From Candidatus Omnitrophota bacterium (GTDB taxonomy: Bacteria > Omnitrophota > Gorgyraeia > Tantalellales > Tantalellaceae), in NCBI GenBank assembly GCA_028715965.1, contig JAQUQS010000003.1, positions 78,494 through 142,493 on the forward strand: a DNA stretch of 64,000 bases, read 5' to 3'. This document shows, in pieces, positions 4,886-54,461 of this stretch (position 1 is its first letter; each line of letters opens with the position of its first letter). Under the pieces are notes generated by a model. It did not search any database, was not told the DNA's origin, and worked only from the letters and a program-made list of their open reading frames with translations. Both the position numbers and the translations under genes were made by a program.

Positions 4886-6178
4886 CTAGAACTTAGTTCT
4901 ATATTTTACCATCACCTCATCTTCATCCGGGGCCTTCCCGGCGCCCTGGCCGGGGTCTGCCGGATCTATCTTTTTTACCCCTTCAATGCTGAGGTTTTCC
5001 TGCAATTTATATTCGGCGCCTACGGCATACCTGTCCCCTGCCGGGATCCCCGCCTTTTCCCGCTTCTCATACCCGGTTATCAACGCCGTCTTGTCTGTCA
5101 TTTTTTTCTTCACGCTAAGGCCACTGGTATTCTCGTCAAATTTTATATCCACCCTGGTGATCCCCATCTCCTCCAGGAAACCATCTCCGGAAGGGTCCAC
5201 GAACAGGTATTCGACAAGGTCCTTCGCGACATCCGGACCCATCTTTTTATTCGCGACAGAGCCTTCCAGGCTATCCCATCTTCTGCCGGTCGCCAGCATC
5301 AATAGTATCCGCTCCTCTTCCATTCGCGGAGTAGATGCCAGCTTGACCTCAGGCGCGCTGACGCTACCGGCGATACCTATATCTATCTTAACATCTTCCA
5401 CCTCGGCCGACGCGCTTATGTCGAGCCCCGTCAGTTCAGGCGCACCATAAAAACGTAAAATGCTCCTACGCAGCTTAAGAATGGTCCTGGGACTGACCAC
5501 TTCGCCGTTCTCGAACAAGGCGCTGCCTTTAAGTTTTACGGGGTCCGTCCCGGCCTCTATGGCCATATCGATCGTTATATCACAACCCCTGACAATGATC
5601 CCGTTACGCAACAGGTTCTTCAGCTTGAGCTTACCTTTTATTTCCGGGGTCTCCGGAGCTCCTTTCACCTTAATGTCTATATCCCTCATGTCGGCATTTA
5701 TCTTCGATAGCCATTTCAGGTCCTTTACCCCGCTCGTCGTGGTTATGTTCAGGGCGTTACAATACACGTCAATGTCCAGCTCGCCCGTGGTGATCTTGCC
5801 AAAGAACGTTACCGGATCGGACCTCGGTATGGACACCTTGCCTTTATTCACCATGCAGCTTAACCATTCTTCCTTCCCGGGACTAAAGGATATCAGCGCG
5901 GAACCGATATTGACCTCAGAGCCTTCGGGCAGTAATTTTATGTTCCCGACATGTATATCCTTTACCGTAATACCTTCGGCCAGGCTACCCGTAACTTCAC
6001 CATACGATACCCCCATCATCATATCATCGTATGTGGCAACTGTGTATCCGAGCACTTTCTCGGCGCCTTTTTGCGTGAATATGACATGATACAGAACGGC
6101 GGCACCGGCAACGCAGCCCGCTATCACCAGTCCGCAAAGGACCGCCCAGAACCTTGTACTCCCAGTAAAAGTATGCAT
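4886..6178 (-). CDS. Membrane-anchored hypothetical protein, possibly TamB/DUF490-like
   Basis: N-terminal TM helix, beta-rich repetitive body, C-terminal ...DRYAVGAEYKLQENLSIEGV reminiscent of TamB C-termini. Weak. Confidence 0.35.
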   Translation of the reverse strand: MHTFTGSTRFWAVLCGLVIAGCVAGAAVLYHVIFTQKGAEKVLGYTVATYDDMMMGVSYGEVTGSLAEGITVKDIHVGNIKLLPEGSEVNIGSALISFSPGKEEWLSCMVNKGKVSIPRSDPVTFFGKITTGELDIDVYCNALNITTTSGVKDLKWLSKINADMRDIDIKVKGAPETPEIKGKLKLKNLLRNGIIVRGCDITIDMAIEAGTDPVKLKGSALFENGEVVSPRTILKLRRSILRFYGAPELTGLDISASAEVEDVKIDIGIAGSVSAPEVKLASTPRMEEERILLMLATGRRWDSLEGSVANKKMGPDVAKDLVEYLFVDPSGDGFLEEMGITRVDIKFDENTSGLSVKKKMTDKTALITGYEKREKAGIPAGDRYAVGAEYKLQENLSIEGVKKIDPADPGQGAGKAPDEDEVMVKYRTKF

Positions 6179-21758: not shown

Positions 21759-24700
21759 TTAAGCGGCCTTGAGCAGGTCTTGCATAGCGGAATGGAGTTC
21801 CAGTAGTTTTTCCACAGGCATACGCGCCATAGGAGGTATAGCCAGGGATATGGCCAGGTTGATCCTGGTTGACGAGTCATCATAGACCATGTTCTTCAGT
21901 GTCTTTTCGGTTATACCTATACTGCCGTCGGATAGAACAGCGTACAGGTCCCTCAAACGCGAAAGCATGCGGGTATCCTCTATTACCTTGTTCATTTCTT
22001 CTTCTTCAAGCGCGCTTACACCCCGGCCTCTTCTTTTCGCTATCACAAGAGCGGCCTTGGACAGGCCGATCATAAGCGCGGCTTCAAAATTCCTGAAAAC
22101 GACCTGCTTGTTATTAATTCCGGTCAGTCCGTCCATAGCTACCGGGAACTCTCCAGGCCCAAGCTCCATACCACTATCCCTCATCCACTCAAGCCAGGCC
22201 TTCGACAAAATAGGTATTTCTATGGCATTCTCCGCCTGGTCGGCGTTAAGCTTCCCGTTCATTATGGCGTCCGCGTCTATATCCTGGCCGAAAAGTACCG
22301 AAAGCTCACGTATCCTGCCCTTCAAGAGGAATCTCACTTCTTCCTCGGACGCGCCGTTCCTTATCTCCGTAAGCAGACTTTCGGGCATGGTCTTCATGTC
22401 CACGGGATAAGGTTGCCTGAAACTGAACCGGACATTCTCCAGGTCCCGGCATAAGAGCATCAAATGCGCCCACGTTGTTATGTTCGCCTCCATATCCCGC
22501 CGGTCCAGCCCTGATATAAGGGAAAGGTCCACTACAATATGCACCGGAGCCATCTTTCCCGGCATGGAAGGATCATCAAAAACAGCCTCGAGATGTCTCT
22601 TAAGCCCGGTAAACGCCATGATCGCCGCGACATGGGACCGTTGTACATTGTCCCGCGCTTCACTGACCCTCCGAGCAAGCTCACCGGCGGCCGCTTCTCC
22701 GGCCTCACCGATAACCCTGATCATACCAAGCGCGTGCTGGTAGACCGCGTCCTTAAGCCTGTCCGGGTCGTCCACGCTCATTTCGATCATGTTCACGTTC
22801 ATTTCCCCGCCGAAATATGCCGCCGCAAAATATTTTAACGCTTCGTTCTGGACAGCCTTGTTCTCCTCCCCAGCAAGATCTAAGACCTTTATCAGGTTAT
22901 CTATCCTGGCATCGACCCCGTGTCTCAGAAAGCGTTCGTTCTCGCCCGCTATCTCCCAAAAATCCCCCAAGTCAGTGATATTGCCGAGCATATCCGTGTT
23001 TATCATTGATCCATGGGTACTCTCCATAATGTTATTGTTCACCAGTCTGCGCATGTTGCGTCCGTAATTACGGCACATCTCCCTGAAATATTCCTCCAGG
23101 GAACCGAATCCTAATTCATCCAACGCGTCATTAAACTCTTTCTTCTTAGGCGCTCCATCCGTATCAAAGAAGGACGAAAGGCGTCTGTAATCCCCCACAG
23201 GCACACGCAGGGTAATTACATACGGCGCTTCCAGCGTCATATTCGCGAGCGTCCACCTGGTCAGGCTGCCACCGTCATTAAGCACCGATATCTCGCGCGG
23301 GATGGTCGTACCGTACTCATCTCCAAGCCCCACGGGGTTCCTTGTAGCCAGCTGGTGCCACCAATCCAGGAATATCCCGGGTTTACCCACGTATTCATCT
23401 ATCACGGTCGCCGGAAAGCTTGAGTTTATATTATGTTTTTCATATGACGGCGTTCCCGCGTTCTTGAACTCCAGCCCGAACACGTGCCGGCTTTCCTCCC
23501 CTCCGGACCTGAGGTCGTCCGTGGTCCTTATGATCCTTTCTCCACTACTCGTCCTGGAGGTCACTACCGTATACGGTATGGGAAGAAGCATGGACCTTCC
23601 CGCTATCCCCAGCGCGGGCATCTCGAAGGGCTTATCGTCCTTACCATATACCCTGCGTAACCCATATCTTTCATATACTTCCTGGTCGGTAAGCGGCCTG
23701 ACATACGCGATGGTCGGAGCGCCTTCGACTTTGGCGTAAAAAGGACCTGTCGTCAGGACAAGCGCCCCGTTATCCCCGTTGATGATCGAACTCAAATGTC
23801 CAGGGAATTCCACGCCGACCGGAATATCCCACTTGGCCCCTTCTTTTACGTAAACTTGCGCCATTATCGGCGTGAATTTCTTGCCTACCGTAAGGTACCT
23901 TGTTTTACCGGTATCTTTATCGACACTTATGCTGCTTGCCGACACTGCGGCTGATACTTCCTTTCCAGCTTCTTCCTTGAGGGCATAGAACGCGTCCGTC
24001 GCGGCAAGAGGAGTGAACTCCATCCTCCCGGATGGCGCCGCCGGCCCGACAGCGGCCTTTTCCGATCTTTTCGCCTCCATCATCTTCAAGAGAACGTAAT
24101 TAGCTACCGTTCCCGGGGTTATCTCTCGTACGGTCTCTATTTTTTCCGCGCTATGCTCATCGGAAAAATCCTTATGGGCTTTCTCCAGCACTTCCGGGTC
24201 CACTTGCTCAACAAGGGACAGGTACCTGTCCATGTTACGCTGGCTCCATACCCGCCATATGCGCGGGTCCAGGCTCTTTATCTTTGCGGCCTGCCGCGGG
24301 TCCAGTATGGCAGCGGAAATACCGCCGACAAGCTCTATCGACGCGCGCATATCGCCATCGCTATCCCGGTAGGTGGTCGCCCCTATCGTATCGTAATATC
24401 CAATGAGCCCCGCGCCGCCCAAAGCGGCTATCAGCACATCCTCGCGCCTTATATATCGCTTGGCCCACAGGATAAGATAATGCGTCTTTATTATGAAGTT
24501 CCCCAGTCCGCGACCGCGGTTGTCCTGGTAGTTCCTGACGCCGTAGCTTCCCCTTTCCGCCCGGGCTACCTCCCTTAATTCATTCCCATCCGGCCCTATC
24601 TCAACCATGGCAATGTCACTGTTCTCCTCTATCCTGAACTCATATTCGACCCGATCCGGCCCAGTCCCGCTGACCCATTTTGTGCTTCTTTTCTCGCCCA

Positions 24701-26774
24701 GAAGGTCCCACATATCGAATTCATACACCTCGGACAGATAGAACATATCAGCGATATGTTCGGGTTTCATATATTCTTCCATCCTGTCAGGACCTCGCCC
24801 CCACATATCCGACCCCTTACCCTCGAACTGTCCGGCAAGCTTGCGGTATTTGTAATAGAATGTGTTGAGCCGGGAAAACCCTTCTTCGTCCAATTTGATA
24901 TTCCTCTCCACAAGTCCCCGGATACGCGCTATCTCTATATTGTCCACCACCTCCCGAATGGTGGTCTCAAGTGTCTTTCCGCTCGAATCCAGCACAACGG
25001 CGTTCTTCGGCCGGCGTGACGGCATATGTTCTCGATGTTCGTCAAGCTCATCCCTACGCGCGATGCTCCCGGCTACTGCCTCGACCATTCTCCCGAAACG
25101 TTCTTCCTCGGAGACGCTCTCCGCTATACGCGCGTACTCACCAGGCGTAGTTCCTATAACATTGCAATAAGAGGCTTCAAGGCCTTCCTTTTTCACCATC
25201 TGGCGTGTCCTGCGTTCCGCGCGCTCCTCGGGACTGGCGGTCATGTATATTTTTATATCAGCATCCGGGGCGATCTCTATTCCCGTGGTCCTCCCCTCAA
25301 GCACCACAGAGACCCCACGCGCCCGAAGCGTGTCTATCATTTCCCTTATCTTCCTGACGGCGAACCATCGTATCTCGGGTATGGCCGAGACAAAAGGCAC
25401 GTTGCCGGAAATATCCTCGGAATAGAATATCTCCGTGATCTCTTGTTCTCCATAAAAAGAACGCGTAGTCCCTTCCGTTTCTTCCATGCGGAACTTCGCC
25501 ATGTCGATATTCTCCGCTATCTTGCGAAGTTCCTCCTTAGTGGACCGGTCCATATCTTTTTTTATATCCAACCCTTCCTTAAGGGCAAGCCATGTTATAA
25601 GCCGGTATATCTTTCCGGCCGAAAAGAACACCGCCCCCAGCATTTTTGCCGCTTCGGACGCGGATGAGGATTTCCCCGTCCCCGATGGGCCATCTATCGT
25701 CGCTACAAAACTATCGTTAAGTATGGGTTGTTTAGCGTAGATCGGGCCAGTCCTGACATCCGGATATTTCCTCAGATCCAGGTGGGCTCTCCTGATATAC
25801 TCCCCGGTGTCGAGCCTTACTTCTCCCTTTATCGTGCCCGGACCGAACATCCCGCTCCATATATTCTCGCCATTGTAGGTCAGGAACGTCGTAGTTAATC
25901 TCCATCGATTTTCCTTATCAATATCGCGCGAAAGCTCCGTCACGAGTTCCCGCAGGAGATTACGCCCGACACCACGCCCTCTTTCCTGCCTCATGACATA
26001 ATGAAAGTAGATCTTATACCCGGTACGACCGACCTTCCCGTACGAGACGAACCCCAGTATCGGCCCACCCAGCTCACGTATGATTATCATATCGTCACGT
26101 GACCGGTCTATCCCGTCGTCATAATCCACCACGACATCCGGCACATCATCCCTGTAAGCCTTTATAGCCCCGTCTATCATCTCCCTGCGTTTACCTTCAT
26201 CCTTTATCCTGGCGGTATATATGATCTCCGCCTTAGGCGCCTTGCGGGCCCTGGCTATCTCCATGGGCATTATCTTTAAATATTCATCTTGGACAGGTTC
26301 CGCGGCGGCAACGTCTTCCGCATCCGCCGGTTCTATATTGATGCGGGTCTCATCCTTCTGGATATCCTGTATACTGCGGCAAGTGGAAGATATCTTCAGT
26401 TTTTTACCCTTGTACGGCCCCCTGACCACGGTAACAGCCACTACAGTACGGCCATCTTCTTTCCATACCCCTCCCGGCAGCACTTCCATAAGACGCGCTT
26501 TACCGTCTATCCGGCTGTACCATTTATCAAGTTCGGCGTTGATCTCGTGGAAAGGCATCTCTCCATCCCTTAGGGCCATGGCCAGTATAAGAGCCGTCTC
26601 GATACGCAGCGCTTCGGCGTTCTCGCGTCCTACATGATCTGTAACAGGTTTGAATATGGATTGTACCTGGAGGGTCTCCGACGGATCCATGTTATCATAA
26701 CGCGGCAATGCGGCAAATACGGTATCGTTGGACAGGAACAGGCATATGACCAAAGATGAAATTATCCGTTTCAT
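21759..26774 (-). CDS. Giant multidomain protein (about 1670 aa): N-terminal signal/anchor, GNAT acetyltransferase, cytidylate-kinase-like P-loop domain, possible second GNAT motif, large uncharacterised C-terminal half
   Basis: GNAT motif A QERGRGVGRNLL (preceded by ILGFVSYGK); cytidylate-kinase-like VATIDGPSGTGKSSSA and VLDSSGKTLE; second RGRGLGNFIIKTHYLILWAKRY; uninterrupted ORF of 1710 codons. Start set at MKRIISSLVICLF. Confidence 0.6.
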   Translation of the reverse strand: MKRIISSLVICLFLSNDTVFAALPRYDNMDPSETLQVQSIFKPVTDHVGRENAEALRIETALILAMALRDGEMPFHEINAELDKWYSRIDGKARLMEVLPGGVWKEDGRTVVAVTVVRGPYKGKKLKISSTCRSIQDIQKDETRINIEPADAEDVAAAEPVQDEYLKIMPMEIARARKAPKAEIIYTARIKDEGKRREMIDGAIKAYRDDVPDVVVDYDDGIDRSRDDMIIIRELGGPILGFVSYGKVGRTGYKIYFHYVMRQERGRGVGRNLLRELVTELSRDIDKENRWRLTTTFLTYNGENIWSGMFGPGTIKGEVRLDTGEYIRRAHLDLRKYPDVRTGPIYAKQPILNDSFVATIDGPSGTGKSSSASEAAKMLGAVFFSAGKIYRLITWLALKEGLDIKKDMDRSTKEELRKIAENIDMAKFRMEETEGTTRSFYGEQEITEIFYSEDISGNVPFVSAIPEIRWFAVRKIREMIDTLRARGVSVVLEGRTTGIEIAPDADIKIYMTASPEERAERRTRQMVKKEGLEASYCNVIGTTPGEYARIAESVSEEERFGRMVEAVAGSIARRDELDEHREHMPSRRPKNAVVLDSSGKTLETTIREVVDNIEIARIRGLVERNIKLDEEGFSRLNTFYYKYRKLAGQFEGKGSDMWGRGPDRMEEYMKPEHIADMFYLSEVYEFDMWDLLGEKRSTKWVSGTGPDRVEYEFRIEENSDIAMVEIGPDGNELREVARAERGSYGVRNYQDNRGRGLGNFIIKTHYLILWAKRYIRREDVLIAALGGAGLIGYYDTIGATTYRDSDGDMRASIELVGGISAAILDPRQAAKIKSLDPRIWRVWSQRNMDRYLSLVEQVDPEVLEKAHKDFSDEHSAEKIETVREITPGTVANYVLLKMMEAKRSEKAAVGPAAPSGRMEFTPLAATDAFYALKEEAGKEVSAAVSASSISVDKDTGKTRYLTVGKKFTPIMAQVYVKEGAKWDIPVGVEFPGHLSSIINGDNGALVLTTGPFYAKVEGAPTIAYVRPLTDQEVYERYGLRRVYGKDDKPFEMPALGIAGRSMLLPIPYTVVTSRTSSGERIIRTTDDLRSGGEESRHVFGLEFKNAGTPSYEKHNINSSFPATVIDEYVGKPGIFLDWWHQLATRNPVGLGDEYGTTIPREISVLNDGGSLTRWTLANMTLEAPYVITLRVPVGDYRRLSSFFDTDGAPKKKEFNDALDELGFGSLEEYFREMCRNYGRNMRRLVNNNIMESTHGSMINTDMLGNITDLGDFWEIAGENERFLRHGVDARIDNLIKVLDLAGEENKAVQNEALKYFAAAYFGGEMNVNMIEMSVDDPDRLKDAVYQHALGMIRVIGEAGEAAAGELARRVSEARDNVQRSHVAAIMAFTGLKRHLEAVFDDPSMPGKMAPVHIVVDLSLISGLDRRDMEANITTWAHLMLLCRDLENVRFSFRQPYPVDMKTMPESLLTEIRNGASEEEVRFLLKGRIRELSVLFGQDIDADAIMNGKLNADQAENAIEIPILSKAWLEWMRDSGMELGPGEFPVAMDGLTGINNKQVVFRNFEAALMIGLSKAALVIAKRRGRGVSALEEEEMNKVIEDTRMLSRLRDLYAVLSDGSIGITEKTLKNMVYDDSSTRINLAISLAIPPMARMPVEKLLELHSAMQDLLKAA

Positions 26775-26935
26775 CTTTGGGGTAAATGCCGCTCTTTTGT
26801 CCCATGGTCCGCGTGTCATAACGGTCTTCTTCTGGTCCCTTTCCCGTCCCGGCCGGGGCATATCCACCCAATTTGGGGAAGGATGGAACATGCCCTTTTC
26901 CCGGGATACAACAACATAAAAAAAGCCGGATCGCC

Positions 26936-27032
26936 TATCTAGGCAATTCGGCTTTCTGGAATAAACATATCACGTTTATCTAGACCCCAAATTTTGCGCC
27001 CCCATGTCACCACGAGTTTGCCTTTATCTAGA
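26936..27032. promoter_or_regulatory. Cluster of three TATCTAG(A) palindromic sites in a divergent promoter region
   Basis: GCCTATCTAGGC (26934-26945) nested in a longer inverted repeat AAAGCCG...CGGCTTT; TTTATCTAGA at 26975-26984 and at 27023-27032. Confidence 0.35.
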
Positions 27033-36756: not shown

Positions 36757-36963
36757 ACAGGCCCTCTTACGCCCCCCGCAGGTCTCTCACCATTTCGTCT
36801 TCAGTCACCCCTGATCGCCTATTACTCGAACATTTTCACGGCCCAGGTATACATAGCTAATATAACTAACCACCACACATAGTGGGCTATAACCCGAAGG
36901 GTTATTGAAAGGCCGGATATACACCGGAGATACGACAACCTTACCATGTCCTGTTTTTTCGTC

Positions 36964-37058
36964 GTATGATGAGCGATGTGGCGTGAGCGAGTTCCGCAGA
37001 CCAAGGGCTGACCGAAAGTCGAGGACTGTTTGAGCTGTAGCCACATCCCGGATCATAC
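36964..37058. repeat. Conserved-core hairpin element, copy A
   Basis: GTATGAT..GATGTGGC stem closing core AGTTCCGCAG...CGAGGACTGTTTGAG..GTAG then GCCACATC..ATCATAC. The same core recurs at 54085-54160 with a different closing stem. Confidence 0.6.
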
Positions 37059-37079: not shown

Positions 37080-37118
37080 ATCTTTTACAGGTTTAGCTGG
37101 GGCTGAACCTGCCCTCTT

Positions 37119-37170
37119 AAAACAAAAAACCTTCGGCGGATCGCTAACCCGCCGAAGGTTTTACTTTTTT
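37119..37170. terminator. Bidirectional rho-independent terminator
   Basis: AAAACAAAAAA, then CCTTCGGCGG-atcgctaac-CCGCCGAAGG, then TTTTACTTTTTT: a perfect 10-bp stem with an A-tract 5' and a T-tract 3'. Confidence 0.65.
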
Positions 37171-37272
37171 ACCGTCCAGGTTCCCCCTTCGAACTCAGGA
37201 CCTTCCAGCAATGTCTATCAAAGTTTACCCCTGAACAGCTCCTTTGTCAAATACCGTTGCCATGCCAGTGAG

Positions 37273-53883: not shown

Positions 53884-53930
53884 GAACATGAGCTCCTTTA
53901 TTTCTTCCCGGCTATCTTATCAAAAGCATC
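53884..53930. repeat. 47-bp direct repeat copy 1 (duplicate of the GYD gene 3' end)
   Basis: GAACATGAGCTCCTTTATTTCTTCCCGGCTATCTTATCAAAAGCATC, 44 of 47 identical to 54163-54209. Confidence 0.7.
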
Positions 53931-54084
53931 GCCACACATTACACGCTGTTATCGCATATGCAAAGAACCCTTGAACGGCCGAAATAACACGCATAGAATA
54001 TTACGCGCCTTCGGCGCATTTTGAGGACGGATACACCCGCCCTTATGCCCGCCTTGCCATTTCTCATACAAGCAAGATATTGGC

Positions 54085-54160
54085 CATGTCAAATGTGTCG
54101 TGGCCAAGTTCCGCAGCCCAAAAGGCGAGGACTGTTTGAGGCGTAGATACATTTGACATG
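54085..54160. repeat. Conserved-core hairpin element, copy B
   Basis: Perfect 12-bp closing stem CATGTCAAATGT/ACATTTGACATG around core ...AGTTCCGCAG..CGAGGACTGTTTGAG..GTAG. Confidence 0.6.
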
Positions 54161-54162
54161 CA

Positions 54163-54209
54163 GAACATGAGCTCCTTTATTTCTTCCCGACTATTTTATC
54201 AAAAGCATC
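54163..54209. repeat. 47-bp direct repeat copy 2 (authentic 3' end of GYD gene)
   Basis: Covers the stop codon and last nine codons (..DAFDKIVGKK*) of the 54177..54461 gene. Confidence 0.7.
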
Positions 54210-54461
54210 TACTTTTACGGCAGGCGAGGTAGTGAACGCGATCCCGGTCATCTTTGAAAGTTCGATCGACGCCTTCATCGCCTTGGCGACATCCGCGAAA
54301 TCGGCCATTATCGCGATATCATGCGCCCCCATGAGCGCGTAGATAGATTCGACCTTGCCGCCGGCTTTCTTAATGGCATTTACGCCCTTTTTGGTACGTG
54401 CCGAGCTGATGCCTTTCATGGCATCTATCGAGTATTTCCCCATCATCAAGAATTTGGCCAT
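54177..54461 (-). CDS. GYD-domain protein
   Basis: MAKFLMMGKYSIDAMKGIS... matches the GYD family (PF08734); 94 aa. Confidence 0.7.
   Translation of the reverse strand: MAKFLMMGKYSIDAMKGISSARTKKGVNAIKKAGGKVESIYALMGAHDIAIMADFADVAKAMKASIELSKMTGIAFTTSPAVKVDAFDKIVGKK

Follow-up and report, generated by a model that had tools for sequence, protein, structure and literature searches.

A conserved-core hairpin family found across phyla, and a copy of it between near-identical 47-nt repeats of the end of a GYD-domain gene in an Omnitrophota bacterium: a probable insertion

Here we describe a family of hairpins with a nearly invariant apical core that is spread over at least nine phyla, together with one of its copies, hairpin B, which lies directly behind a GYD-domain gene of a Candidatus Omnitrophota bacterium. 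In the reading that we favour, at a probability of roughly 0.55, a 279-bp segment of the window (the whole 64,000-nt stretch of DNA that was analysed) is a lineage-specific insertion, behind the GYD gene, of a dispersed chromosomal non-coding repeat unit, the insertion having been accompanied by a 47-bp target duplication; the 279 bp would then be made up of the 232-bp insert (copy B) and one 47-bp repeat. The main result is the hairpin family, and the 47-bp duplication taken alone is a small curiosity. The direct repeat, the homology of the insert to a second unit of the window (copy A), the spread of the family, the strand that folds, the preference for stop codons and the lack of recombinase genes in the window were all observed directly. 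The coordinates of the features are collected in Table 1.

Table 1. Features of the window that bear on the two repeat units and their surroundings
Feature	Position	Strand	Remarks
GYD-domain gene (target gene)	54177..54461	-	94 aa; Pfam GYD E=2e-13
R1, proximal repeat	54163..54209	-	last 10 codons (54180-54209), stop codon (54177-54179), 14 nt of flank
R2, distal repeat	53884..53930	-	non-coding; repeats the gene end with 45/47 identity to R1
Terminator-like stem-loop	53883..53896	-	GGAGCTCATGTTCC then ATTTTATCAG; pattern match only; junction of R2 and downstream flank
Insert (copy B)	53931..54162	+	promoter-like region, 5' module and conserved-core hairpin; antisense and convergent to GYD
Putative sigma-70-like promoter, copy B	53971..53999	+	TTGAAC-17-TAGAAT; 9/12 match; upstream of the structured part
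Small 5' stem-loop, copy B	54005..54017	+	GCGCC-UUC-GGCGC
Hairpin B	54085..54160	+	15-bp outer stem, arms 54085-54099 and 54146-54160, 93% complementary
Core of hairpin B	54108-54116 and 54127-54140		GTTCCGCAG and GAGGACTGTTTGAG
Copy A	36827..37058	+	core 36991-36999 and 37021-37034; long hairpin 36964-37058
Hexamer pair, copy A	36835-36863		TTCACG-17-TAATAT; collinear with the pair of copy B
9-nt direct repeat flanking copy A	36761..36769 and 37111-37119		GCCCTCTTA

The protein encoded by the GYD gene aligns through its residues 4-91 to positions 1-91 of the Pfam profile, so that the last codons of the gene, which lie inside repeat R1, belong to the domain. R1 and R2 came out of the repeat search as a 47-nt direct repeat with a start-to-start spacing of 279, and a 27-nt block inside them is the longest exact local direct repeat of the window, 30 shuffles having yielded 11-16 nt. 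The two copies differ at positions 54190 and 54195. At both of these R2, which if translated would read ..FDKIAGKK against ..FDKIVGKK in R1, has the state of the closest GYD relative (locus L001, 73% identity), namely AAG and an Ala codon. An earlier note on this DNA, made from the letters alone, had given the identity as 44/47 and the insert as 233 bp, ending exactly with hairpin B. The duplication and the non-coding insert between its copies stand as described there, with counts of 45/47 and 232 bp, and the hairpin stops 2 nt short of the boundary. Because the duplication covers the last 10 codons and the stop codon, GYD has stayed intact, which agrees with the replacement 3' end of which that note speaks; the 47 bp would be duplicated target sequence. 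In R1 the insert begins exactly at the 3' base of the terminator-like stem (the junction falls between GGAGCTCATGTTC and C, followed by ATTTTATCAG), and this stem is intact only at R2.

The arrangement of repeat and insert is the same in three assemblies from two samples. It recurs identically in the NCBI MAG GCA_028710465.1 (L002), whose contig JAQTUB010000004.1 is 99.96-99.98% identical to the window, and in a Logan contig of SRR22315506 (L005), a sample whose Logan contigs match the window at 100% identity; the GYD protein is likewise 100% identical to proteins from a Candidatus Omnitrophica MAG. That the duplication arose from a mis-join at the repeat during assembly is highly improbable. 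Two assemblies do break within the repeat, namely the NCBI contig, in which a 100-N gap within the GYD 3' end has the same 23 nt on either side, and the Logan contigs of SRR22315508, one of which stops at window 54196, the base before the mismatch at 54195, and another of which begins at 53913, within R2. However, the k=31 contig of SRR22315506 crosses the whole region at 100% identity to the window, both copies stand with the same two mismatches in the NCBI scaffold, and since R1 and R2 of the window allele have no 31-mer in common the contig breaks need real sequence variants. The NCBI gap is a false one (L002 10268-10366, corresponding to window 54196-54218), and because it falls inside the gene end GYD is annotated as partial (88 aa) in that record.

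We simulated the k=31 graph, taking 31 to be the Logan k-mer size, for all combinations of insert-bearing and empty alleles. The window allele alone, or together with any empty-site allele, fails to give both contig ends of SRR22315508, and in all solutions some allele must carry the insert and have, in its R1, the R2-type C at the second mismatch. The simplest solution combines the window allele with one that has a perfect 47-nt repeat, and no empty allele is required, though one would be compatible with the contig ends. To judge from the sequences, the contig breaks would reflect variation at the two mismatch positions rather than an empty allele. The best fit is an initially perfect duplication in which R1 later acquired two transitions, or an ongoing exchange between R1 and R2, and the two repeats are probably still exchanging sequence or polymorphic in the population.

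The insert is one full unit of a repeat family, to whose second locus (36991-37034) a 40-nt match first pointed. Copy A and the insert align with a local score of 66 (the maximum among shuffles being 48) and an nhmmer E of 1.5e-8, the aligned part running from 53964 to 54153 and the envelope from 53932 to 54174. The two units, about 65% alike where R1 and R2 are 96% alike, share one order of parts, namely a sigma-70-like hexamer pair, a small stem-loop, a purine-rich stretch and a long hairpin. The promoter match of copy B is weak, 1.4 such matches being expected by chance in the region, and at the place equivalent to its small stem-loop copy A has AACCC-GAA-GGGUU. Hairpin B, whose 3' base lies 17 nt from the GYD stop codon, scores 43.6 bits (E=3.8e-10) with our covariance model of the family (model R1, a name it shares with the proximal repeat) and has one G.T pair on the plus strand; copy A scores 54.6 bits with the same model. 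The core of hairpin B is exact, but its flanks are CCAA/GAGG instead of the usual gcGA/GAgc. The window holds only two units of the A/B type, 17 kb apart, and a route to more of them by way of spurious ORFs returned the query alone. An nhmmer comparison of both units with 120 loci gave matches at the level of the hairpin only, so that the 5' module is lineage-specific.

The earlier reading of this segment as the footprint of an insertion is supported to the extent that the 232 bp are foreign to GYD and homologous to copy A. The four small ORFs of the insert have no Pfam match. A decayed GYD paralogue was considered as its origin and rejected, the best local alignment between the two covering only 22 nt, with a score that 24 of 1000 shuffles also attained. 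The 3' arm of hairpin B, at 54141-54157, resembles GYD coding sequence at 54337-54353 (15/17 nt, extendable to 22 nt), a likeness that is probably due to chance, as those 24 shuffles equal it.

Examination of copy A gives the second view of such a unit in its setting. It has a conserved leader hairpin on one side and, on the other, the Shine-Dalgarno sequence and ATG of a radical-SAM/HHH gene. Two orthologous radical-SAM loci keep the leader hairpin and lack both the unit and the core, their place being taken by 25 nt in one and by about 150 unrelated nt in the other, while the closest other radical-SAM protein is 71% identical and has a different gene context. As far as this comparison goes, copy A looks inserted into the conserved spacing between leader and start codon. 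Its flanking 9-nt repeat GCCCTCTTA reads on the minus strand as TAAGAGGGC, the Shine-Dalgarno sequence of the radical-SAM gene; a match of at least 9 nt occurred in 20 of 2000 shuffles, and it is possible that the repeat is a short target duplication.

The leader of this gene is a separate observation. It consists of GTCCTGAGTTCGAAGGGGGAACCTGGAC..AAGTAAAACC followed by a terminator hairpin (window 37120-37215, minus strand) and occurs also at about 2290-2370 of L160 and about 2440-2490 of L161, hence in three Omnitrophota with 67-71% protein identity. A search of Rfam with it gave no match at E<=10, and we regard it as a candidate cis-regulatory RNA. A 17-bp hairpin at 37126-37162, with T runs on both strands and behind an FKBP gene, looks like a bidirectional terminator and is at the same time the attenuator-like stem of this leader.

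We looked for the state of the GYD locus before any insertion. Neither hairpin nor duplication stands behind the stop codon of 31 other GYD genes; this, the setting of copy A and the position of the copy B junction at the terminator-like stem speak indirectly for an insertion. Protein look-up, a metagenome scan and a survey of relatives gave as nearest GYD outside the species one that is 73% identical and has a different gene context. The junction sought would read ...CCGTAAAAGTA-R-CATTTTATCAG, and the hypothetical protein of an empty site is absent from a collection of 15 billion proteins; no empty site was found because no close relative is present in any collection searched. A serious rival to our reading, though an unlikely one, is that the unit was long resident behind GYD and that 47 bp of the gene end were duplicated locally to its far side, or in the opposite direction, by slippage or ectopic repair and kept alike through gene conversion, with no mobility at all. 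It agrees with the fact that no empty site is known, with the finding that in one sample R1 varies at just those two positions where it differs from R2, as exchange between the copies would lead one to expect, and with long flanking repeats being no trait of the family. However, one end of the duplication would have to fall no more than 2 nt from the hairpin base, and the other no more than about 17 nt from where homology to copy A starts, and copy A too has the look of an insertion, into a spacing that is otherwise conserved. Returning to insertion, no donor for copy B was found, and with the units about 65% alike and the repeats 96% alike the donor would be a copy that we have not seen, or gene conversion keeps the repeats alike. 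The junctions of copy B have no microhomology to support template switching.

Examination of the flanks of the other family members bears on both the insertion and its mechanism. Among 125 other copies of the hairpin few have flanking repeats of at least 16 nt (16-34 nt), and these are neighbouring repeat elements, a tandem array, flanks of N gaps or a second copy of the family. None of the 125 thus has a repeat of that length that resembles a target duplication, so a long duplication is not usual for the family. The one further insert-like copy in the window, copy A, is flanked by a repeat of at most 9 nt and of different sequence.

That note had taken R1 and R2 for the attL and attR sites of an integrative element, and the pair does show the near-identical direct repeats spanning the 3' end of a target gene that characterize such elements. 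A miniature integrative element of this kind, with R1 and R2 as attachment sites made by a tyrosine or serine recombinase at an attB in the GYD 3' end and the 232 bp mobilised in trans, by an integrase encoded elsewhere, in the manner of a CIME (cis-mobilisable element), would account for the repeats, for the replacement end that keeps the gene intact and for an insert that, as in a non-autonomous element, carries no recombination genes. Nevertheless we consider it distinctly unlikely. Integrase, transposase and reverse transcriptase Pfam families are all absent from the genes called over window about 2750-64000 (~61 kb), the missing integrase being a point on which the note was right. Copy A lies at an unrelated site without any R-like sequence, and its repeat, at most 9 nt long and of a different sequence, means that there is no common att core. 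The 125 other copies lack flanks that resemble target duplications, the plasmid, phage and viral collections searched contain no match to the core, and the 3' ends of the 31 other GYD genes have not been used. The window contains no tRNA or tmRNA gene as an integration target. The claim of attL and attR sites is thus not sustained (no recombinase gene, no shared att core, 125 copies without a target duplication), although an integrase acting in trans may lie elsewhere in the genome, which leaves this reading some weight. What the note says of a non-autonomous element with a possible link to the hairpins does agree with our findings.

Very unlikely is that the segment is the remnant of a kilobase-scale element whose site of integration was the GYD 3' end and from which a later deletion removed the interior with the integrase, leaving the att-like repeats and the 232 bp. 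Decay of integrated elements is common and the repeats have the geometry of att sites, but the envelope of homology to copy A covers almost all of the 232 bp and leaves little room for other element sequence, and the family is chromosomal and adjoins housekeeping genes. We also considered the two repeats as the VR/TR pair of a diversity-generating retroelement (DGR). In a DGR a reverse transcriptase is encoded close by and the two copies differ only at positions where the template has A; here no reverse transcriptase is among the genes called, and A and T of the gene copy, read on the gene strand, are replaced by G and C in the downstream one, so this candidate was rejected.

Hairpin B and copy A belong to a far wider family, which we searched for in GTDB species genomes with the pattern GTTCCGCAG-N(5-30)-GAGGACTGTTTGAG. 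Exact core matches number more than 120 among those listed and come from at least nine phyla, often with many in one genome. The hosts include Coriobacteriia (with many copies per genome), Lachnospiraceae, Omnitrophota, Hydrogenedentota, Latescibacteria, Planctomycetia, Polyangia, Dormibacterota, Longimicrobiales and others, and many of the matches lie at contig ends, as expected for repeats. One Eggerthellaceae genome holds at least nine near-identical copies of a hairpin of about 85 nt, with unrelated flanks and no target duplication. The hairpins, hundreds of them over many phyla, are built around the core GUUCCGCAG...GAGGACUGU(U/C)UGAG, which forms the nearly invariant apical part, with a long variable outer stem below this asymmetric core and a short GC-rich stem-loop at its apex; in copy B the long outer stem encloses GUUCCGCAG, the short GC stem-loop and GAGGACUGU(U/C)UGAG in that order. 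Because a search with an exact pattern selects for an invariant core, we built covariance model R1, which over the loci found about twenty further copies. Their cores differ almost only by one transition, GAGGACTGT[T>C]TGAG, and are thus nearly unchanged, so the conservation of the core is real.

The outer stems were paired copy by copy, anchored on the core, and no covariation was counted over a single alignment, as bulges differ between copies. They have a mean of 19 bp and comprise 1980 Watson-Crick pairs, 137 G.T and 35 A.C pairs, and this 137:35 ratio indicates that one particular strand folds, which would act as RNA or as single-stranded DNA. In the window the folding strand is the plus strand for both A and B, so that hairpin B is antisense to GYD. 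A gcGA...UUUGAgc pattern in the core, in which copy B has AA for GA, makes the core a candidate kink-turn motif, an assignment that is only suggestive.

For the hairpin family Rfam 15 gave no match at gathering score, either in the window or at 18 canonical loci, and nothing meaningful at E<=10 or E<=1. Collinsella-1 was examined as the same family and rejected, being a different Rfam family, and we found no description of these hairpins in the literature by core sequence or by key words. An unrelated feature of the window is a c-di-GMP-I riboswitch aptamer (RF01051, 50.6 bits; 26939-27032, minus strand), directly upstream of a 1710-aa ORF on the same strand (21759-26891).

The position of the hairpins relative to genes is not random. 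Of the long ORFs that lie within 150 nt of the core on its 3' side, 58 are convergent, with the stop codon facing the hairpin, and 21 are co-directional, with the start facing it (p=4e-5), whereas the 5' side has no orientation bias (23 vs 23). The distance from the end of the core to the stop codon has a median of 60 nt, and the 37 nt of copy B are typical. Around 140 copies the neighbouring ORFs proved to be common housekeeping genes; no gene family is enriched and a transposase does not occur. The 47-nt canonical core hairpin has no blastn match at E<=0.01 among PLSDB plasmids and INPHARED phages, nor does IMG/VR contain an exact match of the core pattern. We considered the hairpin as an ordinary intrinsic terminator, with a U tract directly behind the stem, and rejected this, since at least five T within the next 10 nt follow only 9 of 112 family hairpins; in copy B a T-rich tract begins 16 nt after the stem.

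Further arrangements of the core were seen in individual lineages. Inverted pairs of hairpins are common between convergent genes; in pairs 100-300 nt apart the 5' ends face each other and each hairpin points toward the stop codon of a different convergent gene (L049 296-523, L055 2321-2546, L043 5511-5755, L076 3828-4085, L103 2923-3175, L054 3326-3536, L010 2143-2368). In Hydrogenedentota J094 (L016, L052, L065, L091, L105, L123) and in another Omnitrophota genome (L019, L101, L118) the core lies within a larger repeat unit, about 160-350 nt long, which also contains a second hairpin particular to the lineage. These larger units differ by lineage, so that the universal core rides in different local units. 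Unlike every other copy of the family, the core of L070 (Myxococcota JALOQD010000398.1, about 5330-5460) is arrayed head to tail with a period of 57 nt, and the outer stem is missing.

Taking these results together, we propose that a repeat unit was copied into the stem-loop, terminator-like in its sequence, that follows the stop codon of GYD. The 47 bp would have been duplicated by the fill-in of a long staggered break or by a switch of replication template, with no site-specific recombinase taking part, and the duplication may have been kept since it leaves GYD whole. The unit is probably transcribed from its own promoter into a small RNA of about 150-200 nt that would end in the hairpin facing GYD, and the hairpin might serve there as a 3'-end structure or as a barrier between convergent transcripts.

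Being the only copy out of about 126 with a clear insertion scar, copy B offers a handle on how the family moves. The core is near-constant across Actinobacteria, Firmicutes, Omnitrophota, Planctomycetes, Myxococcota and others, and such conservation usually means a conserved protein or RNA partner. The partner, once identified, could reveal 3'-end formation, transcript insulation or the spread of repeats in poorly studied phyla. A bolder view, tentative and in our opinion unlikely, takes the family for a class of chromosomal elements, structured RNA or single-stranded DNA, that crosses phyla and is as yet undescribed. Such elements would spread within genomes without an enzyme of their own, settle beside convergent stop codons and be recognised, through the invariant 23-nt core, by some host factor of wide conservation. 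The GYD locus would in that case have received one of the rare recent insertions, and its long duplication (47 bp, against 9 bp at copy A) would expose spread by break repair or template switching.

Comparison with known systems yields partial likenesses only. CIMEs and integrase-less att-flanked elements are known, for example, at the 3' end of fda in Streptococcus thermophilus, and the GYD locus is like them in that direct repeats of tens of bp span the 3' end of a gene, the insert is small and free of recombination genes, and the gene end is kept. However, no cognate integrase or parent element is in sight, copy A has no common att core, and the hairpin family is found in chromosomes only, next to housekeeping genes. 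PATEs derived from IS200/IS605 resemble the family in their strand-specific hairpins, in their lack of coding capacity and in mostly having no target duplication, but here there is one long hairpin instead of subterminal hairpins at both ends, and no TnpA or TnpB is nearby; to our knowledge a 47-bp duplication is not expected of them. MITEs such as Correia/NEMIS, RUP and ERIC are, like our units, short, non-coding, multi-copy and placed beside genes, and can carry promoters or terminators. Unlike MITEs, the insert has ends (GCCACACATTAC... and ...CATTTGACATGCA) that form no inverted repeats, and there is no fixed short target duplication, with 47 bp here, possibly 9 bp at copy A and none seen elsewhere.

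A target duplication of variable and sometimes great length (47 bp, possibly 9 bp) is what target-primed insertions of the SINE/LINE type or break-repair insertions templated in MMBIR have in common with our case, and in SINE/LINE-type insertions the inserted piece is a copy of a small transcribed unit, as may be so here. In contrast to these, the window has no reverse transcriptase, the junctions show neither poly-A nor microhomology, and a promoter region, which should be missing from a copy made of RNA, seems to have been inserted with the unit. Intrinsic and bidirectional terminators also place a stable hairpin just past a stop codon and between convergent units, but a T run follows only 9 of 112 of our hairpins and an invariant 23-nt core is no terminator feature. 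REP/BIME and REPIN sequences resemble the family in being multi-copy, intergenic, hairpin-forming and strand-specific, lying at gene 3' ends and between convergent genes, and building lineage-specific composite units. We know of no REP insertion that gives 47-bp duplications, and no RAYT is found among the ORFs next to 140 hairpins. In REP it is the arms that are conserved, whereas in the family described here the arms vary and the asymmetric apical core is conserved, and this core is common across phyla.
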